A stretch of DNA of 64,000 nt from Isurus oxyrinchus. Taxonomy: Eukaryota. Position 1 is the first letter of the stretch; the number at the start of each line of letters is the position of its first letter. The notes beneath the pieces are model-generated. The model searched no databases. It was not told where the DNA came from and saw nothing but the letters and a program-made list of their open reading frames with translations. This document shows positions 28,542 to 59,088 of this stretch, in pieces. A program made the translations under genes and the position numbers. The DNA is taken from positions 5,022,001 to 5,086,000 of the forward strand of contig JANJGN010000013.1 in the NCBI GenBank assembly GCA_026770705.1, written 5' to 3'.

Positions 28542-28640
28542 TTCTGTCGAAGGGTCATGAGGACTCAAAACGTCAACTCTTTCCTTCTCCGCCGATGCTG
28601 CCAGACCTGCTGAGTTTTTCCAGGTAATTCTGTTTTTGTT
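28542..28640 (+). mobile_element. 99-bp PLE mini-insertion: hammerhead motif plus 3' terminus (young family)
   Basis: It is near-identical to 40916-41014. There is an exact 14-bp TSD, tagcatagaacagg, at 28528-28541 and 28641-28654. The GAAA is mutated to AAAA. Confidence 0.92.
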
Positions 28641-28681
28641 TAGCATAGAACAGGGGTTGGCTTAATTGGACCTAATCTTAA

Positions 28682-28884
28682 GTCAAAATACTGTAGATAA
28701 CAAATAAAAACAGAAAATGCTGGAAATGCTCAACCGGTTATAGCAGTGTTTGTGAGAGAAATAGAGTTAATGTTTCAGGTCAATGTCCTTTCATCAAGGG
28801 TCACTGACCTGAAACATTAATTCTGTTTCACTCCACAGACACTGCCATCACCTGCTGAGCATTTCCAGCATTTTCTGTTCTTAT
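28682..28884. mobile_element. Old fold-back PLE mini-element centred on hammerhead motifs
   Basis: The ends acagaaaatgctggaaatgctca and tgagcatttccagcattttctgt are inverted. The centre reads ttaatgtttcaggtca...tgacctgaaacattaa. The minus strand reads TTGATGA...GAAAcaTT. Confidence 0.75.
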
Positions 28885-29335
28885 ACTGGCTTCGACCCTA
28901 CTGGTCTGTGTTCCATAGTACTATAATCGGCAGTGCATTTAATACATTGAGCCTACAATCCAACTGAAGTGAAGCGCTTGTGTGTAATTCATGTAAGTCA
29001 CCTGCCGAGGAACATTTCTGCATTTAGGTCACTGCTTTCGCAGGGTTTAACAGTTAACAGCAAATAAAGTGAAATTCGATAGCCCTCCAAAAACTCAGTC
29101 ATATTCTGCACCCAATAATATATATACAGTATGAGTTAATAATCCAGGTGGTCAAACATGAGCCGTTCTTACAAGAACACCCTGGCTTTCTCTTTCACAA
29201 ACTTGAGTAACTACATTCCAAATTCCTCGCGGCACCATTCACTTGACAATGGTACAGTATTAGGTTATTTTCACTTGCTAGCAGAGGGAGACAAAAAGGA
29301 CTTTATCAATCTGTAACAGCTGGCCAATTTTAACT

Positions 29336-30570
29336 CAAATCCCTCTACACCTCCATCTCCCACCAGGATGGTCTGAGGGCTCTCTGCTTCTTCCTTGAAC
29401 AGAGGGCTGAAACAATCCCCATCCACCACCGTCACTACTCTCCTCTGTCTGTCTGAACTTGTTCTCTCACTGAAAAATTTCCCCTTAAACTTGTCCCACT
29501 TCCTTCAAATAAAAGGTGAGGCTATGGGTGCCCACATGGGCCTCAGTTATGCCTGTCTCTTTATGGGGTATGTGGAATATTCCTTGTTCCAGTCCTACAC
29601 AGGCCCCCTCCCTCAACACTTCTTTTGGTACATCGATGACTGTTTTGGTGCCGCTTCATGCTCTCACCTGGACCTGGAAATTTTTTTTTTTATCAATTTT
29701 GATTCCAATTTTCACCCCTCCATCACTTTCACGTGGTCCATCTCCGACAACTTCCCTTCCCTTCCTTGACCTCTTTGTCTCTATCTCTGGTGATAAACTG
29801 TCCACCAATATTCATTACAAGCCCACCGACTCCCATAGCTACCTCGACTACAGCTCCTCACACCCTGCTTCCTGTAAGGACTCCGTCCCATTCTCTCAGT
29901 ACCTTTGCCTCTGTCGCAACAGCACCTCATCTTCTGATTAGGCACTTTATACAGCCTTCCAGACTTAACATTGAGTTCAACAACTTCAGACTATAAACTC
30001 TCTCTCCATCCCCACCCCTTTTTGATCCCCTTTTCTCTATATTCATTTTTAATTTTTTTCCCCCACTTATTTTCATTATTATTTTTTAAATTTATTTCCA
30101 TTTTGATTTATTTTTTTTATTCCCAGCTTTAGCCTATTTTCGATCTTTCTTCCTACCACTGTCCCCTCCCCCGACCTTACCCCCACTAGGGCCATGTGTC
30201 ATTTTCCAGGGTGCTTACTCTGGTCCGGCCATTATCATATTCTGCTTTCCGCTCTTAATGTCACCATTAGCACCTCCTTTAGCCAGTACCACCACTAATA
30301 ATGACCCTTTGACCTTTTGTTTATGACATCTTTTGCAATCTCTCCTTTGCCTCCATCTATCACTGGCCTTCTATCTAGCTTCATCTGTTCCATCCCCCCT
30401 TTAACAGTATATATTTTACCACATTTCTACTTCCCTTTAGCTCAGAAGAGTCAAATGGACTCGAAACGTTAACTCTGTCTTTCCACAGATACTGTTAGAC
30501 CTGCTGAGTTTTTCCAGCATTTTTTGTTTTTGTTTCAGACTTCCAGCATCCACAGTATTTTGCCGTTATC
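29336..30570 (+). mobile_element. Older Neptune PLE copy, 5'-truncated and internally deleted
   Basis: RT motifs include KGEAMGAHMGLSYA, WYIDD and HYKPTDSHSYL. They are joined at 29917/29918 to the EN C-terminus (LNIEFNNFRL*). A 3' UTR, a degenerate hammerhead (30439-30474) and the tail follow. Confidence 0.88.
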
Positions 30571-32239
30571 TTATGTTGTTATTGACTGAAAAAAGGTTGC
30601 CTTTACTGATACAAATCTGGACATCTAAGAAATTGAAATAGTTCACATCAGCTGATTGATCAGCAATAGCTCCTAGTCCGAACGTAAACAAGACTATCTG
30701 CATTATCAAATGGTACCAACATCATCTGAGAAGCAGTTAGAGTTTGACATGGACACTCCTTCAGGCTATTAACATACCATGCCAATGACTTTTTTGGAAA
30801 CTGAGGGAACATTTAAAGAAGGCCAGCTCTGCTTGAGGTGTTTTTCATTGTTTCCACAACAAAGTAAAAGGCTTTACAGTCAATCCCAAAATGCAGACTT
30901 TATTATTTATAGCAGCTGCTGTGTGTCTGTAAGATTAAAGATTTTGCAACTAAATTGCTGATATAGTTCCACAGAATGAGTCATTTCTTAACCATGAAAC
31001 CACTTTTGATTTTAAACCAGTTGTAGATTTTGCACGTCTTAATATAGAAAAACCAAACTGACCAAGTACCCAAAGGGAATTTGTACTTTTGTGATTGAGT
31101 AACTGATGATTCTTAATGAATGTACATGCCAAAGTGACCACAATTTGATTCTCTATCCCACATCCTTTAAACAGCATTTACACAAGGGGAGCTACTCCAT
31201 TTGACAGCAGGCCTACTCTTTTTCCCACTTACAATACCACAGATTGGGGACTTCAGACTACAGTGTTATACTATTACTGTACACTATAGTACCTTGTAAC
31301 AGGAAATGTGTAGCATATATTGCAACCAGGAATCAGAAGTGATTGTGGTACCCATTTTCACGAAGGCAAGAAACTGGGATTGAATTCTTTGATAGTGGAG
31401 TGTGTCCTAAGGACTAACCTTATTGTTCTTTCAGGGTGTTGAATGAAACCATCTGTTAACGAACATAGAGTGGTGTCTTAAATAAGGATAGACCAGGTTG
31501 CTGAATTTAACTTTTTCTCAATGGAAATTCAGTCATTTCTGAAGTCTACAGGGACCTTCTCTATTGATATTACAAAGCCAAATGGTCATTTAAATCATGA
31601 GTTTTCCATAGCTTTCAACAACTTTAAAACTGGAAATATGTTGTGCATGCTTCTTCAAGACCTGAAGCAAATGATCTCAGAGTGAAAAAAGAATTGGCAC
31701 AACCATCACATCATTTCCCCTGCTTTGAGGAATAATATTAATTATTCACACAGTTAGGTAGAGGATGGTAAAATACGGGCAAGGCCCTAGAATTGTGTGA
31801 TTAGTGGCATCAGAATCTCTAGCTCAGTATTTCCAAGGACCCTTATGGTTGTAAGGAAAAGAAGCCTGAATAGTGTCAGTTGTCACCAATCTTCTAATTG
31901 CCACTGATTTGCAGTTTGTTACTCCACATGCATTTCACTCCTTGAATCAATTAAATCATTGCTAGGCAGCCCACTCAATCATCTAACTCCATTCATCCCA
32001 GCTCTTCAATCAGCTGGTTTTGCAGAAGTTGGGCCTTCAGCCTCTGAGCACCTGATTCTTTACTCAGCTTATTTTTAAATATTAGTGATGGTAGCATTTA
32101 CAAGTCTTATCTTCTCACGTAACAAATATAGTTTCAGCATTACATTCAGACAACCCTCTTAGCTTGGTATATTTCTTTACATCCCTGTAAAGCATCTTGG
32201 GATGTTTATATAGTACCTTTAATGTAGGCAAAAAGCCAG

Positions 32240-32473
32240 AGTCTATATGAGGAAAACATTTTTTATTCAATGAGTGGTTAGGATTTGGAATGCATGACCT
32301 GATAGGGTGGTGGGTACAGATTTAAAGTAGCCTTCAAAAGGGAATTGGTAAATACTTGAAAGAGAAAAATGCAGGGATATGGAGAAAGAGCGGAGGACTA
32401 AGACTAAAGGATTGGTCTTCGAAAGAGCTGGTGTAGACTTGGTAGGCCAAATGGCCTCTTTTCTGTGTTCTGT
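32240..32473 (+). mobile_element. CR1 3' fragment, following a short L2 tail at about 32170-32230
   Basis: The segments atgaggaaaacattttttatt, ttcaaaagggaattgg and ggccaaatggcctc match CR1 3' ends in the window. Confidence 0.7.
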
Positions 32474-34109
32474 AGGTTAAGGGAAATCGGAAGGTAAGGG
32501 GCTGTGACTTCTCATGTAGGTCATGGTCAGGTGATGCCTCAACTGCCATTTATTAATCAAGGTAATGCTCAATATCAACAATGTAAGAGGTCCTGCTTCA
32601 TACTCCAGTCTCAATTGCTATTCACACTTCCAAAGATCAAGCTGCACAATGCTTAACTGTGGGGAAAACAGGCAAATCTGACCTACTGGTCAAGCACATC
32701 TCCTTCAGAATCAACTAAGGAGTCGCACAGAGACAATGGAGAATTTTCAGGCTCCCTCTCCATCCTTTCAGGCAGCAGGATGGATTTAAGGGAGGTGGAA
32801 GAGAGGGAGTCTCTTTCAATAACTCAGTACAATAACTTATCCTGAAAATGGAGCAAATTAGTTTTCATTGCAAAGACAATTGTTAAAAATAAAAGTTATA
32901 CTGTTGACAGATGAAAAGCTTTTTTTTCAAAAAATCTTTACTGTTTAATTGGAATTGAAATGTTTTCTCCTTTAAGTTAGCTCACTGTCACTTACTGTCA
33001 TCACCTTTTTGAGCAGTTTTTACTGTTCTTTCAGGAAATATAAGTGATACATTTGACTGGACATTCAATGTGGTTGAGATTCTAGACATGAAGTGCATTG
33101 GGAATGACATCATCCAGTCCAATTACTGTACCTCACCTAACTGAAATAAGTCACCAAAAAACCTCGTTACACTTCATGTTTTGGCTAATTTGACAGCCAG
33201 ATTGTCTGTAAAACAATCATATAACCTTTTCACGACCAAATTTATCTGTCAGTTTCACATGAGAAACATGCTTTTTGTGCAACATCTACAAAAGTGGCAG
33301 TGAAGACAATGGTAGAACGCAGAAGACATAATTTTTCAAGAGGTGAGCTTCTGATTTCAGTCAGAGCAAGGTGCAGCCCACAGACAGGTTTGAGGCAGAG
33401 GAGATATTCAATGACCACTCAATGGCATTGACAGAGGGGTCAACAAGACAGCTAGAATAATAAAAAAAACTTTTAAAAATATGGTCTAAATGCTGTGTTG
33501 GAGCTCAGGGTTAATGATCCACATGGTAATTCATGAACTATCTACAATATCAACAGATCAGCACACAAAATAGTTAAAACACTTTTAATGCTGTATATAT
33601 AATCACAAATTATAAATTGAGAGAATGAACTCTTTAATTGCTTTCTAGACTTGAATTCCTTTCTTACTGCACTATTCATTAATGTTATGACTTACGCAAA
33701 TAAGACAAAGCCATGCATGGTCAAAAATGCTGTACAATTTCCACACCCAGTTTTACTTTTGGTTTAAAATGTAGTTGCTTATCTCAGTAATCCCGTGACT
33801 GATGGCTTGTTGCTATATGCCATTGGTTAATTACACCATCATGGTTCTATGGCAGTTGTCTGATTCACAATGGTGGGAGGTAACAGGCAACTCAGCAAAA
33901 GCTTATTCAGTGTCATTGATATTAAAGTAGGGAAGCTCAGCTCCAGCATTAACAAGTATTTCAGCAAAGACCAAATCTAGTTTTTCTGCCCCAGTTTGCC
34001 AAGCTCAACAAAGAGGAATTTTGATGGAGGGAAATTTTATAAAGCTCATTGCAGACATTATTAAGGGTTGCTTTGAAGATTCAATGGACAAACACTCTGT
34101 AGTGTGGTA

Positions 34110-34338
34110 AAAACAAAAAACTGCGGATGCTGGAAATCCAAAACAAAAACAGAATTACCTGGAAAAACTCAGCAGGTCTGGCAGCATCGGCGGAGAAGAA
34201 AAGAGTTAACGTTTCGAGTCCTCATGACCCTTCGACAGAACAGTTCTGTCGAAGGGTCATGAGGACTCGAAACGTCAACTCTTTTCTTCTCCGCCGATGC
34301 TGCCAGACCTGCTGAGTTTTTCCAGGTAATTCTGTTTT
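34110..34338. mobile_element. 229-bp near-perfect palindromic PLE mini-element (young family)
   Basis: The 96-bp arms (34146-34241 and 34243-34338) have 1 mismatch and a 1-nt spacer. A 36-bp tail (34110-34145) is present on one side only. There is an exact 16-bp TSD, actctgtagtgtggta, at 34094-34109 and 34339-34354. Confidence 0.95.
34204..34280. ncRNA. Back-to-back hammerhead motifs, one per strand (CUGUCGA core)
   Basis: The minus motif at 34204-34241 ends GAAAcGTT. The plus motif at 34242-34280 ends GAAAcGTC. Confidence 0.7.
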
Positions 34339-34904
34339 ACTCTGTAGTGTGGTACTGAATCAAATACACCAGGAAAGTCTCGGGCCCAATCCTATTGTTA
34401 CAATTCAAGCACTCTCAAGATACCTTTTCCTCATGCTAAATCCAAAAGTCAGCTTCTACAATCAAATGCTCAATACCTATGAATCGAAGCATGAATTTAC
34501 ATGCGAAGCATTTGATAATGTAGCATGCCTGGGTGAATAATTAACCTTTGGTGCCCTTGATGAGCTCACCGAATATAATAGAAGATGACTCGTGATCTGT
34601 GGATCTTGCCAGATAAGACCAGTAAAACTTTGACAGGCCATAAGTCTGGTTATAAACTATCAATCAAATTTATTATTTAAAGAGAAGCAAGAGAAACATA
34701 GCAGGTTACTCAATTTCATTTGTCTCTCAAAACTATTTCAAATGTATGTGAAGGTTCTACATGAGATTAGGTATTTCCTTGAGAATTTCCACCATTCCCA
34801 GTTTGTCACCTGATGAAACAGGAATCACCTCAAGAAATCCCTAATTATAATGCTAAGGGTTGAATTGAGTCGAAGAAAGATCAAAAGATCAAATTATTTA
34901 CTAT

Positions 34905-35858
34905 ATATATATATATATAAATGACTTAGGTGAGGGAAGTGAATATACTTCTAAGTTTGCGGATGACACAAAAATAGGTTGGAAGGCAAGTGGTGAGGAT
35001 GACACAAGGAGTCTACAGAAGGATATAGACAGGTTAAGTGAGTGGTCTAAACCTTGCAAGATGGAATATAATGTGGGGAAATGTATGTTATACACTTTGG
35101 AAGGAAGAAAAGAGGCTGAATATTACTTAAATGGAGAAAGACTGCACAGAAGAATTTGGGAGTCCTTGTGCAAGAATCCCAAAAAGCTAACATACAAGTT
35201 TATCAGGTAATAGGGAAGGCAAATGGAATGTTGGCCTTTATTTCAAAGGGAATGGAGTATAAAAATAGGGAAGTGTTGCTAAAACTGTACAAGTGTGACT
35301 AGTTAGACCACACCTAGAATAATGTGAACAATTTTGGTCCCCTTATCTTATACTGGCATTGCAGGCAGTCCAGAGAAGGTTCACAAGTGTTGATCCTGGG
35401 TACGGAGGGATTTTCTTATGAGGAGAGTTGAGTAAGTTGGGCCTGTACTCATTGGAATTTAGAAGAATGAGAGGCAACCTTATTGAAACATATAAGATTC
35501 TTAGGGCACTTGACAGGGTAGATGCTGTGAGGTTGTTCCCACTTATGGGAGAGTCTAGGACCAGAGGGCATAATCTCTGAGTAAAAGGGTGCCCATTTAA
35601 AACAGAGATAAGGAAGAATTTCTCCTCTCAGAGGGTAGTCAATTTGTGGAATTCTTTACCACAGAGTGATGTAGAGGCTGGGTCGTTAAGTATATTCAAG
35701 GCTGAGATAGACAGATTTTTAATCAATAAGGGAATCAAAGGTTATGGGGAAAATGCAGGAAAGTGGAGTTGAAGATTATCAGATCAGTCATGATCTCATT
35801 GAATGGCGGAGCAGATTCGATGGGCCGAATGGCCTACTTCCGCTCCTACGTCTTATGG
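34905..35858 (+). mobile_element. 5'-truncated CR1 LINE
   Basis: It contains aagtttgcggatgacacaaaaatagg (KFADDTKIG) through the 3' UTR. A (TA)n expansion sits at the 5' edge. Confidence 0.9.
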
Positions 35859-35939
35859 TAAATGCCTTAACAACGAACAAAGCAGTCAGTTAAAAGAAGG
35901 TTCAAAGATGGCAAAGATATAAAATTTAGGTTGACACAA

Positions 35940-36402
35940 GCTGCTCTGTTGGAGAGGCCATCTTTGGTTAAAGTGAGGATCTGGCTGCCCTCTTTGGTAG
36001 ATTAAAAGATCCCATGACATTACTCAAAGAGCATGGTAAACACTGTCTTATGCTACATTTACTTCTCAGCCAACATCACAAACAGATTAATATAAAAGTA
36101 AAATTCTGTGGATGTTGGAAATCTGAAATAAAAACAGAAAATCTTGCAAAAACACAGCAGTGCTGACAGCATCTGTGGAGAGAAAAACAGAACTAGTGTT
36201 TCAAGTTCAATATGACTCTTTTGCAGAACAGATTATCTGGTAATTGTCTCATTGCTATGTGTGGGATCTTATGTGTCAACCGGCTGCTACATTTACTGTA
36301 TTACCACAGCAACTTCACTTCAAATGTACTTCATTGGCTATAAAGTGCTTTGGGACATCCTGAGGATGTGAAAAGGGCTATATTACTGCAAGTTCTTTCT
36401 TC
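35940..36402 (+). mobile_element. Deu-domain SINE interrupted by a PLE mini-insertion
   Basis: The segments aaaagatcccatgacatta, caacatcacaaacagatta|tctggtaattgtctcattgct and tacttcattggctataaagtgctttgggac align with 880-1220. Confidence 0.75.
36090..36226 (-). mobile_element. 137-bp old PLE mini-insertion (degenerate hammerhead plus tail)
   Basis: It aligns with 6822-6962. There is a 9-bp TSD, aacagatta, at 36081-36089 and 36227-36235. Confidence 0.8.
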
Positions 36403-36933
36403 GTCAGTCTGACAGGATTTCCTGGTACAATATTTACACGCATGAGACAAAACAACTCACACGCTGCAAGGTTAGATTCTTCACCCTTCTTGGGGGCTGT
36501 CAATTTCAATTGATTAACTATCTCTTCTCTTGCAGCTAGGCAATTAATATTAAGAATTTCTATATTTTAGCTGGTCACCAACTGTTTTTAAGACATACAC
36601 CTGGGACAGATCAAATCCTCTGCTCTTTCAAATGACTAACAATTAAGATAAAGTATGCATGCCAGTAGTCACACAAACAAAAATGGCCATTGGCTGGCTA
36701 GTTACCAAAACTCTATTAAAATAGAATTTATACTATTAGAAACAAGTCAGAACTTTAATCTGTCAAACCATTGTCTACGCAGAACTAGGATAACTTGGAA
36801 ACATAGTGCTGGGACACTACAATGTGTCATATGGGCCATATATTTGGCTGGAATGCACCCTGATGTATTCATTATTTTGTCACACCATTATCATGCACAA
36901 ATTAATTGGGCTACGTTTCAGATTTCAAATAGA

Positions 36934-37726: not shown

Positions 37727-37794
37727 ATGTAAAACAAAAACAGAATTACCTGGAAAAACTCAGCAGGTCTGGCAGCATCGGCGGAGAAGAAAAG

Positions 37795-37833
37795 AGTTGA
37801 CGTTTCGAGTCCTCATGACCCTTCGACAGAACT
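37795..37833 (-). ncRNA. Minimal hammerhead motif, variant core CUGUCGA
   Basis: It is the exact reverse complement of 40914-40952. Confidence 0.72.
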
Positions 37834-38225
37834 TGAGTTCGAGTCCAAGAAAGAGTTGAAATATAAGCTGGTTTAAGGTGTGTGTGTGGGGGGGCGGAGA
37901 GATAGAGAGAGAGAGAGGTGCTTGTGTAGACAAGCAAGCAGTGATAGAAGCAGATCATCAAAAGATGTCAGTGACAATGGTACAAAAGAACACATAGGTG
38001 TTAAAGTTAAAGTTGGTGATATTATCTAAACGAATGTGCTAATTAAGAATGGATGGTAGGGCACTCAAGGTACAGCTCTAGTGGGGGTGGGGGGAGCATA
38101 AAAGATTTTAAAATATTTAAAAATAATGGAAATAGGTGGGAAAAGAAAAATCTATAAAATTTATAGGGAAAAAAAAGGGAAAAAGGGGGAAACAGAAAGG
38201 GGGTGGGGATGGGGGAGGGAGCTCA

Positions 38226-40053
38226 CTACCTAAAGTTGTTGAATTCAATATTCAGACCGGAAGGCTGTAAGGTGCCTAGTCGGAAGATGAGGTGTTGTTC
38301 CTCCAGTTTGCGTTGGGCTTCACTGGAACAATGCAGCAAGCCAAGGACAGACATGTGGGCAAGAGAGCAGGGTGGAGTGTTAAAATGGCAAGCGACAGGG
38401 AGGTTTGGGTCATTCTTGCGGACAGACCGCAGGTGTTCTGCAAAGCGGTCGCCCAGTTTACGTTTGGTCTCTCCAATGTAGAGGAGACCACATTGGGAGC
38501 AACGAATGCAGTAGACTAAGTTGGGGGAAATGCAAGTGAAATGCTGCTTCACTTGAAAGGAATGTTTGGGCCCTTGGATGGTGAGGAGAGAGGAAGTGAA
38601 GGGGCAGGTGTTACATCTTTTGCGTGGGCATGGGGTGGTGCCATAGGAGGGGGTTGAGGAGTAGGGGGTGATGGAGGAGTGGACCAGGGTGCCCCGGAGG
38701 GAGCGATCCCTACGGAATGCTGATAAGGGGGGTGAAGGGAAGATGTGTTTGGTGGTGGCATCATGCTGGAGTTGGCGGAAATGGCGGAGGATGATCCTTT
38801 GAATGCGGAGGCTGGTGGGGTGATAAGTGAGGACAAGGGGGACCCTATCATGTTTCTGGGAGGGAGGAGAAGGCGTGAGGGCGGATGCGCGGGAGATGGA
38901 CACAGTTGAGGGCCCTGTCAACGACCGTCGGTGGAAAACCTCGGTTAAGGAAGAAGGAGGACATGTCAGAGGAACCGTTTTTGAAGGTAGCATCATCGGA
39001 ACAGATGCGGCGAAGGAACTGGGAGAATGGGATGGAGTCCTTACAGGAAGCGGGGTGTGAGGAGCTGTAGTCGAGGTAGCTGTGGGAGTCGGTGGGTTTG
39101 AAATGGATATTGGTGGACAGTCTATCACCAGAGATTGAGACAGAGAGGTCAAGGAAGGGAAGGGAATTGTCACAGATGGACCACGTGAAAATGATGGAGG
39201 GGTGGAGATTGGAAGCAAAATTAATAAATTTTTCCAAGTCCCGACGAGAGCATGAAGCGGCACCGAAGTAATCATCGATGTACCGGAGAAAAAGTTGTGG
39301 AAGGGGGCCGGAGTAGGACTGCAACAAGGAACGTTCCACATACCCCATAAAGAGACAGGCATAGCTGGGGCCCATGCGGGTACCCATAGCCACACCTTTT
39401 ATTTGGAGAAAGTGAGAGGAGTTGAAGGAGAAATTGTTCAACGTGAGAACAAGTTCAGCCAGACGGAGGAGAGTAGTGGTGGATGGGGGTTGTTCGGGCC
39501 TCTGTTCGAGGAAGAAGCTAAGGGCCCTCAGACCATCCTGGTGGGGGATGGAGGTGTAGAGAGATTGGACGTCCATGGTGAAGAGGAAGCGGTTGGAGCC
39601 AGGGAACTGGAAATTGTTGATGTGACGTAAGGTGTCAGAGGAATCACGGTTGTAGGTGGGAAGGGACTGGACAAGGGGAGAGAGAAGGGAGTCAAGATAA
39701 CGAGAAATGAGTTCTGTGGGGCAGGAGCAAGCTGAGATGATCGGTCTACCGGGGCAGTTCTGTTTGTGGATTTTGGGTAGGAGATAGAAGCGGGCCGTCC
39801 GAGGTTGGGCGACTATCAGGTTGGAAGCTGTGGGAGGGAGATCCCCAGAGGAGATGAGGTCAGTGACAGTCCTGGAAACAATGGCTTGATGTTCAGTGGT
39901 GGGGTCATGGTCCAGGGAGAGGTAGGAGCAAGTGTCTGCGAGTTGACGCTCAGCCTCCGCGAGGTAGAGGTCAGTGCGCCAGACAACAACAGCACCACCC
40001 TTGTCAGCGGGTTTGATGACAATGTCAGGGTTGGACCTGAGAGAATGGATCGC
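38226..40053 (-). pseudogene. PLE polyprotein remnant: reverse transcriptase + Cys-rich linker + GIY-YIG endonuclease, with one frameshift near 38905
   Basis: ORF 38848-40077 has KPADKGG, YLLPKIHK, MDVQSLYTSIP, GVAMGTRMGPSYA, RYIDD and PFLD. ORF 38226-39395 continues with PCPRKRCNTC, NLVYCIRCSQCGLLYIGET and GLN. The N-terminus is missing. Confidence 0.93.
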
Positions 40054-40533
40054 TCCCTCTGGGACACCCTGGTCCACTCCTCCATCACCCCCTACTCCTC
40101 AACCCCCTCCTATGGCACCACCCCATGCCCACGCAAAAGATGTAACACCTGCCCCTTCACTTCCTCTCTCCTCACCGTCCAAGAGCCCAAACACTCCTTT
40201 CAAGTGAAGCAGCATTTCACTTGCATTTCCCCCAACTTAGTCTACTGCATTCGTTGCTCCCAATGTGGTCTCCTCTACATTGGAGAGACCAAACGTAAAC
40301 TGGGCGACCGCTTTGCAGAACACCTGCGGTCTGTCCGCAAGAATGACCCAAACCTCCCTGTCGCTTGCCATTTTAACACTCCACCCTGCTCTCTTGCCCA
40401 CATGTCTGTCCTTGGCTTGCTGCATTGTTCCAGTGAAGCCCAACGCAAACTGGAGGAACAACACCTCATCTTCCAACTAGGCACCTTACAGCCTTCCGGA
40501 CTGAATATTGAATTCAACAACTTTAGGTCGTGA
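40047..40533 (+). pseudogene. Inverted second copy of the PLE linker and GIY-YIG domain (open frame, no native start)
   Basis: The C-terminal part of ORF 39805-40533 reads DRSLWDTLVHS...LVYCIRC..CGLLYIGET...NNFRS*. Confidence 0.9.
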
Positions 40534-40913
40534 GCTCCCTCCCCCATCCCCACCCCATTTCTGTTTCCCCCTTTCTTTTTTTTCCAATAAATTATATAGA
40601 TTTTTCTTTTCCCACCTATTTCCATTATTTTTAAATATTTTAAAATCTTTTATGCTCTCCCCACCCCCATTAGAGCTATACCTTGAGTGCCCTACCATCC
40701 ATTCTTAATTAGCACATTCGTTTAGATAATATCACCAACTTTAACACCTATGTGTTCTATTGTACCATTGTCGCTGACATCTTTTGATGATCTGCTTCTA
40801 TCACTGCTTGTTTGTCCACACAACCACACCCCCCACCTCTCTCTCTATCTCTCCGCCCCCCACACACACCTTAAACCAGCTTATATTTCAACTCTTTCTT
40901 GGACTCGAACTCA

Positions 40914-40952
40914 AGTTCTGTCGAAGGGTCATGAGGACTCGAAACGTCAACT
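40914..40952 (+). ncRNA. Minimal type I hammerhead motif, variant core CUGUCGA
   Basis: Stem I is agtt/aact and the core is CTGTCGA plus an extra A. Stem II is gggtc/gactc, followed by GAAA and a loopless palindromic stem III (ACGT). The GUC triplet predicts cleavage after 40948. Confidence 0.72.
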
Positions 40953-41723
40953 CTTTTCTTCTCCGCCGATGCTGCCAGACCTGCTGAGTTTTTCCAGGTA
41001 ATTCTGTTTTTGTTTTGGATTTCCAGCATCCGCAGTTTTTTTGTTTTATAAAATGGCAAGGGTTCATCAAGCATGACCGACTGTCCAACACAGCCACTTG
41101 TGATTTAGAAACCAGCCACATGAACATGGGTCTTGCACAGTGTAAAAGTAAAGACTTAACTGAGTTGGCTTGATCAATTCTAGCTGAACTCTATCTAAAG
41201 GTGCACTTAGAGTGGTACTTATTTAATTAAGATCACAAAAAGCAGTACGTATGTCAAAAAAATGCTGCACTCATTGCAGAATCTAGCATGACAGCACAAC
41301 ATCAGTTAGTATTTCATGACATAAAACTGCCTCACAACAAGTGTTAGTTGTTTTACTGCTTATCACATTTATGTAGACGGGTTCTCATGGCTCTGAGTTG
41401 CTTTCAGGCCAGTCTGAAGTAGGAGCCCAATGTTTCTAATCAAACTATTCTTAAACACAAAAGGACAGACCCTGCCAGTATATCATGAAAGATTTAGCAT
41501 GTAAGGCAAGTACATACTTCCACACCTCACAACTGGAAATGGTTTCTGCAAGTTTGCTGTTTATCATTATGAAATGGGTGAGGGTATGGGTGTACTTTGA
41601 GTAAAAAGTACTCCTGAACTTATTCTCCTGTCATGAGCATTTCAATCTGACTTTTTCTCAAAAGCTGGCAAATGGGCCTATCCAAAAAGATTGGCTTCTT
41701 AGAGAGTTTTTAATGATTTTTAA

Positions 41724-47407: not shown

Positions 47408-47409
47408 AT

Positions 47410-47743: not shown

Positions 47744-47754
47744 CATTTGGCAAA

Positions 47755-49904: not shown

Positions 49905-51078
49905 GCTGATGCTGAGTTTGATGAAGTAACAGAGAGGACTGACAAGGTTGATTTGTGTAAATGGACTCCCAAAAGCTGTTTGATGAAGCAACATATAACA
50001 GGCTTGTCAGCAAAGTTGAAGCCCATGGACTAAAAGGGACAGTAGCAGCATGGATACAAAGTTGGCTTAGTGACAGGTAATAGAAAGTAGTCTTGAAGTT
50101 GTTTTTCAGAATGGAGGAAGGTGAGATTCCCCAGGGATTGGTATTAGGACTACAGATTTTCTTGATCTTTATTAATGACCTAGACTTAGGTGTACAGGCC
50201 ACAATTTCAAAAATTGTGGCTGACACAAAACTTTGGAAGTATTGTGAACTCTTAGAAGGATAGACTTCAAGAGGACATTGACAGGCTGGTGGAATGGGTG
50301 GGTATATGTGGCAGATGAAATTTAATGCATACATTTTGGTAGGAAGAATAAGGACAGGCAACATAAAATAAAGGATACAATTGTGGAGGAGATGCAGGAG
50401 CAGAGACACCGGGGGTTTATGTGCACAAATCAGTGAAGTTGACATGGCAGATTCATAAAACACATGGTATCCTGGGCTTTATATATGGAGGCATGGAATA
50501 TAAAAGCAAGTAAGTTATGCTGAACCTTTATAAAACACTGATTTATCTAAACTGGAGTAGTGTGACAAATTCTCCACACCACACTTTGGAAAGGATGTGA
50601 ACTTATTCGAGAGGGTGAAAATGAGATTTACAAGGAATTATTCCAGGGGTGATAAATTTCAGTTATGTGGATAGATTGGAGAAGCTGGTGCTGTTCTCCT
50701 TAGAAAAGCTTGAGAGGAGATTCTATAGAGGTGTTCAAAATCATTTGGGGTGTAGATAGAATAGATAGTGAGTAACTTCCAGTTGGTGGAAGGGTTGAGA
50801 ACCAATTTAAAGTGAATGGCAAAAGAACCAAAAGCTACATGAAGAAACATTTATTATGCAGTGAGTGGTTTGAATCTGGAATGCGCTGCCTAAGAGTGTG
50901 GTGGCAGAAGATTCAATCATAGCTTTCAAAGGAGACTGGTAATTATCTGAAGAGAAAAGAAATTGTAGGGCTACGGGTAAAAGACAGGGGAGTGGGACTA
51001 GCTGAGTTGCTCTTGCAGAGAGCTTGTACGGACACAACAGGCTGAATGGCCCTCGCAGCAACACTCTATGATTCTAAC
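49905..51078 (+). mobile_element. Decayed CR1 LINE (RT to 3' end)
   Basis: It contains attccccagggattggtattagga (PQG.VLG) and ggctgacacaaaactt, followed by a CR1 3' UTR ending tctatgattct. Confidence 0.85.
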
Positions 51079-52679
51079 CTTACACTCTCTGGGCAGAAAT
51101 CTAATCATCCACTACTGAAACTTTAATAGTTCTCAATTAAGTCACTGGGCAGGCTGAGAAATGTGAGAAAAACAAACATTATCAATCTAATTTCTTGGAG
51201 ATTCACCTCCTGTAATTTCATCCAGAGCACAACAGATGTGGAAACCTGAAGAAGAATGTGTTACTGTTCACCCTCCCAAATAGAAGATTAAGCTTATAGG
51301 AAATGAGGTGAAGGGAAGCCGTTCAGCATTTATATAAAGAGATATGACAGCATTTGCACGTACCATTATGCACATAGTCTTGCATGAAGACAAAAATGTC
51401 AGAATGCATTATGCAGATAAACGCCTACAGTAGTGTTAATGATTTCACATCTGAAGGCTTCTAGCTCCAAATGGCTGACAGTAAGTTGTTAAAGATAAAA
51501 ATTTCCTTCAAAACCTCACAGGTCTGGAGATTAGTTGAAATCCTACAACTATTAAAATCTTCAGGCACTGAAGAAAAAGCTGCATTTAGAAAAAGACAGA
51601 AATTCATCCAGAACTTTTGAACTATGACAGTTTAAAACCCAGTGGGTGCATATTTAACTTTACAAATTAGGCAAATTAAACCAGTTTAAATATTAAAAGC
51701 TTTCCTTTCCATGGAATTACACACAGCTTCACTAAAGGCCATTCACGATATGGTGAATTGGTTACAGTCAAGCTGGTTCATGAACAATGTGTGCAAAGCA
51801 CTTATTTGAAGTGCAGACAACTTATTCTGTTCAAAGGGAAAGGGTGAAAGGTGAAAAAGTGATGCTTTCAAACAATTTCTCTTTCTCAGAGTATCCTACA
51901 GATATTATGGTTGCTTAGTGAAGTACCACACTATGCAGAATAAGGATAACATGCTTAATGCCACCTTCAAGTTACATGTCTAAAGAACTTTAATCAACTC
52001 TTAATTATGCTTTTTCCCCCAATATCTTCAACACTGCACATTTATTTTAACAGCACTTTGGAAAATTCTCAGTATCCATGACAAAATGAAAACTGTACTA
52101 TTTGCATAAATACTCCAGTTGACTGTAACAGAGAGCTGCAGATTCTCTAACTCATTTCCAGCTGAGGATAACCAATACTACTAAGGCGTTAACCTTCATT
52201 TGTGCTCTTAATATTCAATTTGGGATGTAGACCACATACCAATTAAAAAGCTCTGCTAAAATAAGAAGGCCTTACATTGCCATCATATCTGCCTCCATCC
52301 CAAGGGGATTGTGGGTATCAGTCTTGGGAGATCAAATTTATTGAGTTTTCAATAATACTGTGAAAAATGTTCTTCTGGAAATCAAATTATAAGATTTTTT
52401 CAAATCTACAGTCATACTGAAAAGGTCACTTCTCATCATGTACTCCAACCTGAGTCATGTAGGTTACAACTGCTCAAATGTTCCAGTAACAAAATTTTTT
52501 TGGCAATCCTGTCAATGAAATTGCAGAAATATGGGGTCTGAGTAAAAATAGACGCTTGGTTGGCCCCAAGGCCAAGACCATAGATAGAATATTGGTGAAG
52601 GGGGCACAGAGGAAAAACAGCAAAAGCATAAACATCAGGGCAGGTTATGGAGAGCTTCCTTGTTGCAAGAGTACAGCAA

Positions 52680-53150
52680 GGACTGCCCTCCTCCAGAAGC
52701 ATTCAATACAAATTCAAAGACAGTGGTTGTCCTCCACGACCTTGTTTCAGGGGGCCATTCTTCTTCTGGGTGATCTTTGATAGGTTATCTGATCACAGAG
52801 TGGAATAGGGTAGGGGGCATTACAGCTTGATCTTTACTTGTTCACATGGATTAGCTGCTACCTCACATTAGTGGACATTTATCAGATGCAAGATGCTAAT
52901 CAGCTAAGGGGTTCTTCACATGTCCTATCCCAGTATCTATAAACACATCCACTTCTGTCCAGGTTCACTGGAGAACAACTGGGATTTGGAATCCTGGCCT
53001 GGGTTTTGCCTCCCTAGCCCAGGGTGCGGAGGTCAACTGCAGTGCCTAACTCTTGCCCTAGAGATCATCAGCTAAGTCAGTATATAATAGGAATGATGGC
53101 TCAGTACCACAACATTGGTCCATTTATCCATTAAGATATCAGGGGAGGCA
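52680..53150 (-). mobile_element. AmnSINE2-like SINE
   Basis: The minus strand reads gtggtactgagccat...ccctgggctagggaggc...ccaggccaggattcc...agaagaatggccc. Confidence 0.55.
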
Positions 53151-53404
53151 GAAAACTGAATTACGCACATATTACATTAAATTTTGTAGCCTAAATCTCA
53201 AAATGTCTTTTAGTCCTTAAAGACTCAATGATCAAGTTATGTGGATCTCGATTTAAAGACTAATTTGAAAGGTAGCAATTTCACACAAAATTGTTTCAAA
53301 ACTTGCCACAGTACATAATTATCAAAGACAAGTTATAAATTTGTATAATGCTTTTTTGAAACATTGACTTGGCACTGGGCAGCAGAAAAAAAGGTTTCAC
53401 TATT

Positions 53405-53715
53405 AGTGAAGTGTGGTTATGATAATAGACTAGCACTCAAGAAGACATGAGCCTAAATCCCACCATGGCAGGTTGTGAAACCGAATTCAATAAATTTCGT
53501 AATTACAAGCTAGCACTAGGAAAAATGATCAAAATCATCATAAAAAATCCAAACGACTTCACTAACCAGATCGGGCCTACAAACCCATAATTATTAATTG
53601 ACACTTAAACCACTCTGAAGTGGTGCAACTGTCACTACAGAACAGAATGATCACCGCTAATTTCTCAATAAACTTGACTAGAGTTGTCCACATCCCAAGA
53701 AGAATTAAATAAAAC
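53405..53715 (+). mobile_element. Older copy of the 47410 SINE family
   Basis: It contains aatcccaccatggcag, gaattcaataaa and the tail ccacatcccaagaagaatt. Confidence 0.6.
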
Positions 53716-54185
53716 TTATTAATTATACTATTTTAATCAACAGCAATAATTTCTATAATCAATGATACTCTACTAATATTTGCTTGTTGATGCATCTGAT
53801 GTATTGAAAGGAGGATTGGAAAGAGAAAGCTGGATCTTTTTCTTAATACTACCCATAAATATTAACTTATCACAAAATTTATTAGCCAACTTTGAAATTC
53901 ATCAGCCAGCCCATTAAATACAGTGCCAGGGTATCTATTCTCTAGATTATTAGCCAAATGAACATGTAAAGTCATATTAGCAATTAGTGAATGTCCAGCT
54001 TAGTCTCAGAGTTGCAATGAAGTATTGCAGAATCATGCATAATTAGCAGTTACCTATAATGTCAAGAAGCTTTCATGTGCACAACAGCTGTATTAGTAAG
54101 GGAATTATAGAAATGAACCAAACCAGATTTTCTACAGCATGGTTATTCATTCTAATTACATTTCTATGAATATAGCACAAGAATA

Positions 54186-57094
54186 GACTAGAAAGTTGGG
54201 GGGGAGGGAAGGGTAAAACTCCAAGAAGTATGACTAATGGGAAACAAAGCAGCAGGTTAGCATGTGTGGGGGGGGGGGTGGATTCAACTTCATGGAAAAT
54301 TATGAAAAAACTGAAAAGAAAGGAGAGCCCAGGAGAGGCTATTAAAGTCTCCAGAACACAAAATAGGACAGAGTGTTTGGAAAGGGCTAGGAATCTAACT
54401 TCAAGCACATCAGATAAAGGGACGACAATGAGAAAGGCGACGGGAAATACAGGACTGAAGGTGTTGTATCTGAATGCACGCAGTATACAAAATAAGGTAA
54501 ATGAGCTTGTGGCACAGAATGAAATTGGCAGCTATGATGTGGAGGGCATCACGGAGACATGGCTGCAAGGGGATCAGGACCGGGAGCTAATATCCAAGGA
54601 TATACATCCTATCGAAAAGATAGGCAGGTTGGCAGAGGGAGTGGGGTTGCTTTGTTCATAAGAAATGAAATTAAATCGATAGCAAGAAATGACGTAGGGT
54701 TAGATGATGTAGAATCTGTGCGGGTAGAGTTGAGGAACCGCAAAGGTAAAAAAACCATAATGGAAGTTATGTACAGGCCTCCGAACAGTAGTCAGGATGT
54801 GGGGCACAAAATACACCAGGAGATAGAAAAGGTGTGTAAGAAAGGCAAGGTTACAGTGATCATGGGGGATTTCATTATGCAGATAGACTGGGAAAGTCAG
54901 GTTGATAGTGGATCCCAAGAAAAGGAATTTGTGGAATGTCTATGAGATGGCTTTTTTGAGCAGCTTGTGATGCAGCCTACTAGGGAACAGGCAATTCTAG
55001 ATTTAGTGATGTGTAATGAGGCAGATTTGATAAGGGAGCTTAAGGTGAAGGAACCCTTAGGAGGAAGTGACCATAATATAATAGAATTTACCCTGCAATT
55101 TGAGAAGAAAAAGCTGGAATCAGATGTAACGGTATTACAGGTGAATAAAGGCCACTACAGAGGCATGAGGGAGGAACTGGCCAGAATTGACTGGGAGATG
55201 AGCCTTGCAGGAAAGACAGTGGAACAGCAATGGCAGGAGTTTCTGGGAGTAATTTGGGAGACACAGCAAAAATTCATCCCTAGGAAGAAGCATACTAAAG
55301 GGAGGAGGAGGCAACCATGGTTGACAAGGGAAGTCAGGGACAGCATAAAAACTAAAGAGAAAACATACAATGGCGGAGGAACTGAATAGGTACTTTGCGC
55401 CAGTCTTCATGGTGGAAGACACAAGTAACATCCCCAAAGTTCAAGAGAGTAGGGGGGCAGAGGTGAGTATGGTGGCCTTAACCAAGGACAAGGTGCTAGG
55501 AAAACTGAAAGGTCTGAAGGTGGATAAATCACCTGGACCAGATGGATTACACCCCAAAGTTCTGAAGGAGATAGCTGAAGCGATAGTGGAGGCATTTGTG
55601 GTGATCTTTCAGGAATCACTCGAGTCAGGGAGGGTCCCAGAGGACTAGAAAATCACTAATGTAACCCCCCTGTTTAAGAAGGTAGTGAGGCAAAAGGGAA
55701 ATTACAGGCCGATTAGCCTGACCTCGGTCGTTGGTAAGATTTTAGAGTCCATTATTAAGGATGAGATTTCAGAATACTTGGAAGTGCATGGTAAAATAGG
55801 GCAAAGTCAGCATGGTTTCATCAAGGGGAGGTCATGCCTGACAAATCTGTTACAATTCTTTGAGGGGATAACGAGTAGATTAGACAAAGGAGAGCCAATG
55901 GATGTTATCTACTTGGACTTCCAGAAGGCCTTTGACAAGGTGCCGCACAGGAGGCTGCTCAGTAAAGATAAGAGCCCATGGTGTTAGAGGCAAGGTACTA
56001 GCATGGATAGAAGATTGTCTGTCTGGCAAGAGGCAAAGAGTGGGGATAAGGGGGTCCTTCTCAGGATGGTGGCCGGTGACTAGTGGAGTTCCGCAGGGGT
56101 CAGTGTTGGGACCACAACTTTTCACTTTATACATTAATGATCTAGATGAAGGAGCTGAGGGCACCCTGGCTAAGTTTGCAGATGATACAAAGATAGGTGG
56201 AGGGACAGATAGTATTGAGGAGGTGGGGAGGCTGCAGAAGGATTTGGACAGGTTGGAGAATGGGCAAAGAAGTGGCAGATGGAATGCAATGTGGGTAAGT
56301 GTGATGTCATGCACTTTGGTAGGAAGAATAGAGGCATAGACTATTTTCTAAATGGGGAGAGAATTCAGAAATCTGGAGTGCAAAGGGACTTGGGAGTCCT
56401 AGTCCAGGATTCTCTTAAGGTTAACTTGCAGGTTGAGTCAGTAGTTAGGAAGGCAAATGCAATGTTGGCATTTATTTCAAGAAGACTAGAATATAAAAGG
56501 GATGTGCTGCTGAGGCTTTATAAGGCTCTGGTCAGACCACATTTAGAATATTCTGAGCAATTTTGGGCCCCGTATCTCAGGAAGGAGGTTCTGGCCTTGG
56601 AGAGGGTCCAGAGGAGGTTCACGAGAACGATCCCAGGCATGAAAGGCTTAACATATGAGGAACGTTTGAGGACTCTGGGTCTATACTCGATGGAGTTTAG
56701 AAGGATGAGGGGGGGATCTGATTGAAGCTTACAGAATATTGAAAGGCCCGGATAGAGTGGACGTGGGGAAGATGTTTCCATTAGTAGAAGAGGCTAGGAC
56801 CTGAGGGCACAGCCTCAGAGTGAAGGGAAGACCTTTTAGAATAGAGATGAGGAGAAACTTCTTTACCCAGAGACTGGTGAATCTACAGAATTCATAGCCA
56901 CAGAAGGCTGTGGAGGCCAGATCATTGAGTGTATTTAAGACTGAGATAGATAGGTTCTTGATTGGTAAGGGGATCAAAGGTTACGGGGAGAAGGTGGGCG
57001 AATGGGGTTGAGAAACTTATCAGCCATGATTGAATGGTGGAGCAGACTCGATGGGCCGAAGGGCCTAATTTCTGCTCCTATGTCTTATGGTCTT
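54186..57094 (+). mobile_element. Long 5'-truncated CR1 LINE: APE endonuclease + RT pseudogene + 3' UTR
   Basis: Several frames contain YLNARSI, GITETWL, YRPPN, MGDF, LDLV, SDHN, GPDG, NYRPISLTS, DFQKAFDKV, GVPQGSVLGP and FADDTK. The tail is (gtcttatg)n. A possible 7-bp TSD, aagaata, lies at 54179-54185 and 57095-57101. Confidence 0.95.
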
Positions 57095-57237
57095 AAGAAT
57101 AAGATAAGCACCATGTAGTTAAGTATAAGTATTTCACTTTTTTGTACAGTTGAGTACAAATGAGCTTCATATAACTGTTGTTATATTTGCTCTTTTTGTT
57201 TGAAAGTACAATTCTCGGTTTAAAACATCAAAATATA

Positions 57238-57816
57238 GGTTACAAGGCACTAGTTAAACCAAACCTAGAATACTGTGAACAAGTTTGGTCCCCTTATCTA
57301 AGGAAAGATACACTGGCATTGCAGGCAGTTCAGAGAAGGTTCACTAGGTTGATCCCAGGTATGAAGGGATTTTCTTATGAGGAGAGGTTGAGTAGGTTGG
57401 GCCTGTATTCATTGGAATTCAGAAGAATGCGAGGTGACCTTACTGAAACATAAGATTCTTCGGGGGCCTGACAGGATAGATGCTGAGAGGTTGTTTTCCA
57501 TAGTGGGAGAGTCTAGGACCAGAGGGCAGAATCTCAGAGTAAGGGGTCGCCCATTTAAGGCAGAGATGAGGAGGAATTTCTTCTCTCAGAGGGTAATCAA
57601 TCTGAGGAATTCTTTACCGCAGAGGGCGAATGAGACTGGATCGTTAAGTATAATCAAGGCTGAGATAGACAGATTTTTAATCAGTAAGGGGATCAAGGAT
57701 TATGGGGAAAAGGCAGGAAAGTGGAGTTGAGGATTATCAGATCAGCCATGATCTCATTGATTGGCAGAGCAGACTCAATGGGCTGAATGGCCAACTTATG
57801 CTTCTACGTCTTATGC
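57238..57816 (+). mobile_element. CR1 3' fragment (same subfamily as 34905)
   Basis: It encodes YKALVKPNLEYCEQVWSP...RRMRGDL, followed by the 3' UTR. Confidence 0.9.
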
Positions 57817-58132
57817 CTTAGCTCACTTCAGGATCTCTCAATCATCACTGTCTCCTATTCCAAAGTGCAGTTTGGATTATTAACATTTGCCAAAGTCAAT
57901 GAAGAATTTTTATGCTAAATAAAACACAACTACAGAAATTTTAAAAGGACCAACATACAGTTTGGATCAACAGACTTTTCTCAATAATCTCCATAGAAGT
58001 TGTGGAAGAAAAATTACACTTTGGATGCAATGGATAGGCCAACTGATATGTTGCACTCCTTCACTCCCAGAATGAGCCTTGGGAAACTGCACATTCCAAC
58101 CCATGGTGTTCGTTTAAACAATAAAAATTAAT

Positions 58133-58528
58133 GGCCTGAAAATCATGGGCTGGGGCAAGAAGTTACCCTAATATATGCTCCCGCTGTTTGCCAGCAGGAC
58201 TGAAGTGGAAAATGCTAGCTTTCATGAGTTCATGAGAACAATATTTCAGATGTGAGAAACAACTCATAACTAAGCCTGCGAATGGTGTTTCAGAAATCAT
58301 TAACAAAAACAGCTCAAGTTTCTAACTAAAACCTTGCAGCCAGTAAACACCTCAGCAGCGACAGGAACTTCCAGTCATTTCTTTACGTGTAAAAGACCAC
58401 CATAACTCTCTTGCCCCTGCAGCATTCATGAGTTATGGGTCTTTCACATTCATGAAAGAAATGCTGTAACTCACTGTCACTAGTGAGATATAACGAGGTT
58501 ATATAAAGGATATTTTTCATTTTCAGGC
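58133..58528. mobile_element. Possible MITE with an internal hairpin
   Basis: The ends are gcctgaaaat and attttcaggc. An internal inverted pair reads aaagaccaccataactc and gagttatgggtcttt. Confidence 0.35.
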
Positions 58529-58877
58529 AGAAATGCTATTGCAGACCTCAAAGGATTAACCCTCTGAGTATACAGCAATCACAGCTTCTGTGCTTGAACA
58601 TACTGGCTTGAAGAGCAGATGTCTTATTTCAAGTGTTGCCCATGTTACTGCAGCTATTAGTAAACAACTGCACCAAATGTGTACAATGTAGGTCGAATTG
58701 CAAATGCATTTTTTTTTAAACAGGTGGATTTGTACTAATATAACATTCTTGCTATACAGGAGTGAACCAGGAATTAATCTTTGCTGGAAAGCACAACTAG
58801 GTTCTGAAGAAGTATCCATTAATTTATTTTGGTATCATTTTAAATTGAGTTAGGCAAGCAAAAAACGTTTTAATATC

Positions 58878-59088
58878 AAAGCAAAATACTGCGGACGCTG
58901 GAAACCTGAAACAAAAACAGAAAATGCTGGAAAAGCTCAGGTCTAACAACATCTGTGGCGAGAAAGACAGAGTTAATGTTTCCAGTCCGTATGACTCTTC
59001 TTCAGTCTGGAGACTCTGAGACAGACTCAAAATGTTAACTCTGTCTTTCTCTCCACAGATGTTGTTAGACCTGCTGAGCTTTTCCAAC
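58878..59088. mobile_element. Fold-back PLE mini-element (older family)
   Basis: The left arm tgctggaaaagctcag...agaaagacagagttaa is inverted relative to ttaactctgtctttct...ctgagcttttccaaca. The minus strand has CTGAAGA-a-gagtc-atacg-gactg-GAAA. The tail is on one side only. Confidence 0.85.

Follow-up and report, generated by a model that had tools for sequence, protein, structure and literature searches.

Penelope-like elements that carry an endonuclease (EN+) combine a reverse transcriptase (RT) with a C-terminal GIY-YIG domain and have a hammerhead motif in their terminal repeat (PMC8557442, PMC3846280; these and most of the other papers are cited here for the accessible part of their text). 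Their copies have head-to-head inverted arms, a tail on one arm (30–40 bp in known elements), and TSDs of 9–16 bp. In the Neptune and Nematis clades, a CX2-5CxxC linker lies between RT and EN (PMC8557442). For the green anole element Poseidon PAc, Frangieh 2024 (PMC11167929) describes internal initiation at two sites in the pLTR–ORF junction RNA, a product length set by the template's 5′ terminus, and a main substrate of uncleaved RNA, with RNA ends absent from the cut site. Both the copying cycle of these elements and the role of the hammerhead are stated as open questions (PMC11167929, PMC8557442).

The window, i.e., the whole stretch of 64,000 nucleotides analysed here, contains nine insertions (14 arms) of such an element, identified with a profile search at E < 1e-12. 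The same search revealed no shorter copies above the reversed-window control (best other match E 0.35, versus 0.57 in the control). The element matches the Pfam profile RVT_1 (E 6.7e-9, 36.2 bits for a cut-off of 29.6), and its GIY-YIG match (E 3.4e-4) scores 21.3 bits, slightly below the cut-off of 22.6, in a C-terminal region with a visible Cys/His pattern. The ORF at 38226–39398 includes a CX4CX2C linker, in agreement with the Neptune/Nematis pattern. Inverted 5′-truncated copies, one-arm tails, and TSDs, all features of EN+ elements, are present.

Our reference is the long right arm at 40047..41048 (+), which includes the endonuclease end and the full 3′ repeat with its tail; positions are given relative to the hammerhead core base C3, at 40918 of this young copy. 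The facing arm, at 37731..40049 (−), is a long 5′-truncated copy of subfamily A without a tail, in which Pfam identifies frameshifted RT and GIY-YIG coding pieces. Three further insertions served as controls: a larger palindrome of subfamily B (6822..7311, 15-bp TSD) with arms starting at about −120 and −130, a solo copy without tail cut off at −665 in the endonuclease region (21965..22728, +, 12-bp TSD), and an older long copy of subfamily C with a tail and an internal deletion (29335..30571, +). The 5′ ends of these four insertions lie at about −120/−130, −665, −1740, and −870/−2220.

The minimal type-I hammerhead motif, recognised in the sequence at 40914..40952 (+), has a stem I made of 40914–17 and 40949–52, a core from 40918, a stem II at 40926–40940, and GAAA at 40941–44. 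It has the type-I features listed in PMC4209133: a stem I of 4–5 bp, a stem II, the extra base after A9, G10.1–C11.1, GAAA, and the palindromic 15.2–16.2. The core reads CUGUCGA in all six aligned arms of subfamily A, and the copies at 7215 and 59005 have a CUGANGA core. We take the canonical core to have A6 where the young subfamily reads U. The alignment has 91% of cells paired, with covariation that does not exceed shuffles (64/500), and the monomer fold (−7.3 kcal/mol, z +0.49) is no better than shuffles. A search of Rfam with a limit of E 1 brought up only generic hairpins below the gathering score and nothing of the hammerhead type.

The 5′ ends of the mini-insertions

The clustering of mini-copy 5′ ends at the edge of the ribozyme is confirmed. 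A sequence-only reading of this DNA had claimed that five mini-insertions begin or fold back at the hammerhead, and we find their 5′ ends at about −4 to +6 of C3, whichever 3′ end they carry, in 5 of the 9 insertions (8 of the 14 arms), with one ambiguous right arm at 59010. Two are solo copies, whose starts at the motif were correctly read and are both accompanied by TSDs. The one at 28542..28640 (+), from the young subfamily A and without tail, is identical to the core 40918–41010 at 91/93 positions; it starts at −2, or at −3 given 1-nt microhomology, and has a 14-bp TSD (28528–28541/28641–28654). The other, at 36090..36226 (−), is tailed and from an older subfamily; it starts at 0, or at −3 given 3-nt microhomology, and has a 9-bp TSD (36081–36089/36227–36235).

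The remaining three are palindromes. The young one consists of a tailed left arm starting at −3 (34110..34241, −) and an untailed right arm starting at −4 (34242..34338, +), within a 16-bp TSD (34094–34109/34339–34354). The old palindrome near 28795, centred at 28793/28794, has a left arm with a partly deleted tail that starts at +1 to +6 (28680..28793, −) and an untailed right arm that starts at +4 to +6 (28794..28885, +). In the other old palindrome, the tailed left arm (58874..59009, −) has the canonical CUGAAGA core and starts at 0 to −3; the right arm (59010..59100, +, right end approximate) is damaged in the 5′ half of the ribozyme, and its start is either about +15 or, if an internal deletion is allowed for, about −4. 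We found no TSD for either old palindrome. Hence, boundaries are fixed by TSDs in three mini-insertions (28542, 34242, and 36226).

These copies differ in age, as had been claimed: core identity to the young copy is 91–93/93 for 28542 and the arms of 34242, versus 65–80% for the other three mini-insertions. Identity between arms is 92/93 in the 34242 palindrome, 73/86 in the one at 28795, and 59/69 in the one at 59010. Because tailed arms (about 130–137 nt) and untailed arms (about 92–100 nt) stop at the same 5′ place, the 5′ ends are set by position, not by length. None of the mini arms of subfamily A extends beyond −4, a region in which three long copies show upstream sequence. The argument that random 5′ truncation would not obviously produce such a cluster holds under five smooth-truncation nulls (P 0.00005–0.009, i.e., 3 to 558 of 60,000 simulations of nine insertions, with rounded ends for the four long ones and the post hoc 12-nt window treated as a scan statistic). 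The predicted cut falls after 40948 (+30), and the mini-copies end about 25–35 nt upstream of it, on the 5′ border of stem I, within the 20–40 nt originally proposed.

Breakpoints in reads of a related species

We judged breakpoints across many copies from the reads of a related species. Read depth doubles over 15 bases at the 5′ edge of the ribozyme; the slope of depth, small upstream of −7, reaches its maximum between −7 and +4. Loose 3′ ends occur at 41016 and at 41047/41049, and the copies fall into two 3′ end classes, untailed and tailed. The three opposite-strand joints listed in the raw DNA runs all have an arm at −4, with the support of 82/47, 74/41, and 39/14 reads in X23/X24, where X24 is whole-genome amplified, can hold chimeras, and counts only as a replicate of X23. 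The joint 40914/40915 (74 and 41 reads in the two runs) is of the same type as the 34242 junction of the window. Among the joints listed, the two commonest inverted ones are free of microhomology, and 8 of the 11 joints with inserted letters listed in X1 restart at −8 to +6 (post hoc binomial 2e-6).

In X17, 20 contigs have long flanks of low agreement at 40914, a number similar to the 22 and 26 at the true 3′ ends; these are contigs of an RNA-like run that may contain DNA, and they cannot reveal RNA starts. Contig depth in X17, which is no measure of expression and was set aside as evidence, rises about 17-fold downstream of the ribozyme, versus about 5-fold in DNA. Part of the read peak is an effect of subfamily homology and of the aligner. 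By a rough estimate from a depth model that ignores subfamily divergence, some 30% of the loose ends in X23/X24 resemble sites where the sequence of another subfamily simply runs on, and indels at 40907–40911 can heap clipped reads onto 40914. Taken together, the window and the reads support the earlier proposal of a preferred minimal unit made of the ribozyme and a terminus of about 62–100 nt. Separately, 37 metagenome loci with a 19-nt motif of the family were discarded as chance matches, because none aligned past about 37 nt around the motif.

Possible origins of the ends

The sequence-only reading offered three mechanisms, an RT stop, a template switch, and the 5′ end of a template RNA, of which the last fits best. 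We tentatively favour it, with a little less than even confidence: internally primed cDNA would run off the 5′ end of its template, predicted at −4 and probably a transcription start. Priming would take place at two internal positions, some 100 and 135 nt downstream; the two classes of 3′ end are the putative equivalents of the RT starts described for the anole element. The primed template may be the 5′ terminal-repeat copy within a transcript or a short transcript of that repeat; its predicted first nucleotide is the A four positions ahead of the core, where the cDNA would run off. A single cDNA of this kind would yield a solo copy, and two together a palindrome of head-to-head arms, one of them tailed; trimming at joining would spread the ends over a few bases on the downstream side of −4. 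The mini-copies would then be complete, “strong-stop”-like products and not random truncations.

A TATA-like (or branch-point-like) motif at 40882..40888 (+) lies 32 nt upstream of A40914. The spacing to the −4 A is 29–31 nt in subfamilies B and C, and thus 29–32 nt in 6/6 long copies of three subfamilies; these copies share ancestry, and the conservation of the motif is not independent evidence. The A at −4 is initiator-like and an ATG follows at about +56, although the exact initiator consensus is imperfectly matched in subfamilies A and C. The rotifer pLTR carries a TATA-plus-initiator motif (Arkhipova 2013, PMC3846280). Several observations count against a start, or a run-off, at −4: the start of Penelope in D. 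virilis lies about 121 nt upstream (PMC2377424), an intron ends at helix I in that species (PMC4209133), the pyrimidine-rich tract and AG at −4/−3 here resemble its acceptor, and one palindrome of the window ends at about −120/−130. The extra G expected from cap copying is absent at the listed junctions.

Cleavage by the ribozyme was rejected as the source of the ends because all five mini-insertions retain sequence 5′ of +30; no loose read ends occur at 40948/40949 among those listed. The hammerhead could also act as a protective 5′ boundary rather than as a cutter, if a 5′–3′ exonuclease shortened a longer transcript until it met the motif, folded or bound by protein. We consider this unlikely, although it accounts for all the evidence for run-off without a promoter at −4, the base with which the pairing of stem I begins in subfamilies A, B, and C. 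The anole ribozyme cleaves only with the element protein, suggesting protein-assisted folding (PMC11167929), but the protein-binding requirements mapped in that RNA lie downstream according to the accessible text. In addition, the monomer fold is weak, and trimming would make the TATA-like spacing a coincidence.

Snap-back or annealing of nascent cDNA, guided by inverted repeats at the border between stem I and the core, would cluster the centres of palindromes regardless of the RNA end, and junction palindromes were interpreted as self-priming by Arkhipova 2013 (PMC3846280). There is a 5-bp inverted repeat at 40907–40918 and a weak terminal hairpin at −3 in subfamily B, and the −4/+2 joint, with its 2-nt overlap, has the form of a hairpin closed by a 2-nt loop. 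This part of the template-switch proposal may therefore explain one class of junctions, but it leaves the solo copies 28542 and 36226 unexplained. The two commonest joints lack overlap, a loop-retaining product is absent among those listed, and in an energy scan of unconstrained folds (the pairing constraint was not enforced) the best fold leaves the cDNA end of subfamily A without a partner at −4 and −3, with stronger hairpins elsewhere. We therefore regard snap-back, too, as an improbable general cause.

It is rather less plausible that the peak is largely ascertainment, because homology between subfamilies ends at the ribozyme edge or because a few pre-truncated masters were amplified as a non-autonomous family. 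The long copy C falsely seems to begin at +5 when compared with reference A and runs 1.1 kb further, and the agreement of loose ends (0.50) exceeds that at true 3′ ends (0.36–0.44). Yet it is 0.43 in X1 and 0.41 in X17, inverted joints require a match to the reference in both arms, the window boundaries are fixed by three TSDs and two mirror symmetries, and junctions vary among copies of three age classes.

Stalling or drop-off of the RT at the folded hammerhead is very doubtful, even though the ends coincide with the motif and a dimeric or protein-held fold could exceed the monomer prediction. A stop caused by structure should fall on the 3′ base of a helix (about +34 here), not after its unwinding. 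The enzyme reaches the 3′ side of the fold first, but it is the 5′ edge where the ends are found; the fold energy is not above shuffles, and long copies traverse the motif intact. The weak predicted fold thus argues against both cleavage and an RT stop. The cause may also be something other than the fold, since the same bases resemble an initiator and a splice acceptor, with a tract rich in pyrimidines (0.82 in subfamilies B and C) before AG at −4/−3. Splicing-related processing or a bound splicing factor at this acceptor, by analogy with the D. virilis intron, has very little to recommend it, as a cut would start copies at −2 and the common junctions retain −4 and −3, no GT..AG skip ends there among the listed joints, and lariat stops would fall near −30.

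Comparison with known systems

In LTR elements, priming of minus-strand strong-stop DNA near the RNA 5′ end yields a discrete short run-off cDNA. The likeness holds if the run-off model does, with the difference that the product here would be target-primed and directly inserted, with neither tRNA primer nor integrase. It is possible, if somewhat short of probable, that the hammerhead of vertebrate PLEs sits at the extreme 5′ end of the template RNA, with internal priming on the 5′ repeat giving, by run-off, a discrete strong-stop cDNA inserted singly or in head-to-head pairs. If true, it would account for solo minimal hammerheads being in excess genome-wide, for the inverted pLTR, and for a hotspot that persists in a subfamily with an altered catalytic core. 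An RNA starting at the ribozyme edge would expose a step of a poorly understood copying cycle. With a fixed 5′ breakpoint, the many stumps in the genome show where the template RNA ends, and internal initiation is tied to the inverted-repeat structure.

We found no title or abstract describing a positional 5′ hotspot, in a search outside of which most subscription papers fell; the accessible parts of PMC7561263 and PMC6765202 added nothing on breakpoints. For EN+ elements, frequent 5′ truncation and variable inverted repeats are reported (Craig 2021, Arkhipova 2013), and a fixed breakpoint at the ribozyme edge is not described in the accessible parts of these studies. Downstream of its hammerhead, Poseidon PAc of the anole likewise has a pair of 3′ ends separated by about 33 nt, and its copies likewise keep an uncleaved ribozyme (PMC11167929). 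That work maps the 3′ (initiation) ends and, in its accessible part, reports no 5′ hotspot, but its supplementary figure S2, on the coverage of anole copies, may already show such a 5′ step. The element described here differs from Poseidon PAc by its Neptune-type CX4CX2C linker. Scattered minimal hammerheads have the same type-I motif, and those standing alone or as opposite-strand pairs were ascribed to truncated PLEs (Cervera and de la Peña 2014, PMC4209133), without boundary mapping in the accessible text; the young subfamily of this window differs by the U at core position 6. Non-LTR retrozymes (bioRxiv 10.64898/2026.07.22.740005) are likewise short pLTR-derived hammerhead units, including dispersed monomers, but they are longer and consist of two or more units in tandem, whereas the copies here start upstream of the cut site and are solo or inverted, with no tandem hammerhead-bearing units in the window. 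The class of the element and its palindromic stumps are already known; what is new is the positional rule and the cause proposed for it.

The element and its hammerhead

The window is vertebrate-type DNA rich in retroelement fragments. It includes several mutually related 3' fragments of LINE-like elements (34913-35860, 55884-57815, 59563-60115), which carry ORFs resembling RT or endonuclease and which we take to be of CR1 type, and a repeat (35990-36400), split by the solo copy at 36226, that presumably resembles a shark SINE. The endonuclease-bearing Penelope-like element (PLE) under study has the linker pattern CX4CX2C, a Neptune-type motif as defined in the available sections of PMC8557442. 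In its young subfamily A (long copy 40047..41048), a minimal type-I hammerhead occupies 40914-40952 within the 3' repeat, with stem I starting at A40914, core base C3 at 40918 (from which signed positions are counted) and a predicted cut after 40948. This subfamily is abundant and its core is non-canonical: core position 6 is U in every one of its arms (40921-40922), and ~30% of reads show T at position 40922. Mutational data lead one to expect impaired cleavage from such a core.

Immediately 5' of the ribozyme, subfamily A has short stretches like the 3' strands of stems I and II plus GAA (40889-40909), absent from subfamilies B and C and possibly a rearranged partial duplication. On the 3' side, the frame from the ATG (40969-41003) runs for 10 codons to a stop in young subfamily A, which also has a donor-like CAG|GTAATT at 40998; in older copies the frame stays open through the terminus. 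An intron specific to the subfamily may be present here.

Clustering of 5' ends in the window

A profile search of the window recovered 9 insertions comprising 14 arms, with no shorter copies above control. Five of the nine start at -4 to +6, confirming the claim of the sequence-only reading that five mini-insertions begin or fold back at the hammerhead. They are two solo copies, at 28542 (-2/-3) and 36226 (0 to -3), and three head-to-head palindromes, centred near 28795 (both arms +1..+6), at 34242 (-3 and -4) and near 59010 (0 to -3 on the left arm; the start of the right arm is ambiguous). Target site duplications (TSDs) of 14, 16 and 9 bp pin three of these boundaries; a TSD search at the two old palindromes found none. 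The copies differ in age, as had been proposed: the young ones are identical to the long copy at 91-93 of 93 positions, the old ones at 65-80%. Tailed and untailed arms differ by ~35 nt in length and share a stopping place. Random truncation is indeed unlikely to produce such a cluster, since five smooth null models placed five of nine insertions inside a 12-nt window in 6, 3, 166, 558 and 94 of 60,000 simulations. Ribozyme cleavage does not account for the ends, since they lie ~25-35 nt upstream of the predicted cut and the young subfamily has the U at core position 6.

The remaining four insertions end at ~-120/-130, -665, -1740 and -870/-2220. The palindrome at 6822-7311, a single insertion, has arms ending at ~-120 and -130, near the start expected of a D. 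virilis-like element. AACAG lies near the start or middle of three of five TSDs (28528-28541, 21955-21966, 36081-36089).

Reads and contigs at the breakpoint

We placed two raw DNA runs from a related species (X23, X24) and two contig sets from another organism (X1, DNA; X17, probably RNA) on 40400-41059 at 90% likeness. Between 40907 and 40922, depth climbs from 10,541 to 21,249 (X23) and from 10,469 to 21,385 (X24), against an expected rise of 1.04-1.09 under toy smooth models. Position 40914 is the top 5' loose end among those listed in all four sets (3,828 and 4,444 reads in X23 and X24; 87 and 20 contigs in X1 and X17). Among the opposite-strand joints listed (459 more exist), three are supported by raw reads, and each of these has an arm at 40914: 40914/40914 (82 and 47 reads in X23 and X24), 40914/40915 (74 and 41), which is the junction of the 34242 palindrome, and 40914/40920 (39 and 14). 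Of the 11 listed X1 joints that contain inserted letters (140 more rows exist), 8 resume at 40910-40924. The hotspot is real, but the read test exaggerates its height and single-base sharpness. Clipped reads heap on one base because of indels at 40907-40911, unique flanks could be mimicked by several different subfamilies, and, against the A reference, the older long copy of subfamily C (29335..30571) falsely appears to start at +5. In the raw runs, loose-letter agreement reaches 0.50 at 40914, between true 3' ends (0.36-0.44) and subfamily edges (0.66-0.79), so that roughly 30% of these loose ends may be another subfamily continuing. A separate edge at 40869, the exact begin or end point of 955 and 916 reads in X23, is probably a subfamily boundary adjoining a CA repeat.

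Origin of the breakpoint and known systems

We tentatively favour, as the leading explanation, internally primed cDNA running off a template RNA that begins at -4. Priming at two internal sites would give discrete cDNAs of ~100 and ~135 nt; one run-off cDNA would yield a solo copy, and two a head-to-head palindrome with a tail on one arm, which is the anatomy of the mini-insertions. A TATA-like motif lies 29-32 nt upstream of the -4 A in six of six long copies from three subfamilies, and long copies have an ATG at ~+56. Exonuclease trimming of a longer RNA up to a protein-held ribozyme is unlikely, though pairing in stem I begins at that A, and trimming would therefore leave an identical DNA footprint. 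Snap-back directed by local inverted repeats, about equally unlikely, suits the -4/+2 joint but leaves the two overlap-free joints and the solo copies unexplained. Ascertainment, or amplification of a few mini masters, is improbable. The interpretation in the sequence-only reading is partly borne out: it had offered both a template 5' end, the part favoured here, and an RT stop at the fold. The latter is very improbable, because the motif is predicted to fold no more stably than shuffled sequences and the enzyme would reach the fold from its 3' side. A splice acceptor is just as doubtful: the tract and AG are of the expected kind, and in D. virilis, according to the available text, helix I is where an intron ends (PMC4209133) and the start lies ~121 nt upstream (PMC2377424), but the AG is retained in junctions and a matching splice joint is absent among those listed.

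Our literature search found no fixed 5' breakpoint at the ribozyme, although a supplementary image of Frangieh 2024 may bear on the point. The parts of the literature available already describe the element class, inverted arms, tail and TSDs (PMC8557442, PMC3846280) and scattered minimal hammerheads (PMC4209133). The two 3' end classes of our copies (~41010-41017 and ~41041-41050) agree with the 30-40 bp tail pattern given for PLEs in PMC8557442. A TATA-plus-initiator motif has been proposed in a rotifer terminal repeat (pLTR; Arkhipova 2013, PMC3846280). For the anole element, the accessible portion of Frangieh 2024 (PMC11167929) reports that reverse transcription begins at two internal sites of the pLTR-ORF junction RNA, that uncleaved RNA is used as template, and that 5'-shortened templates give shorter products.
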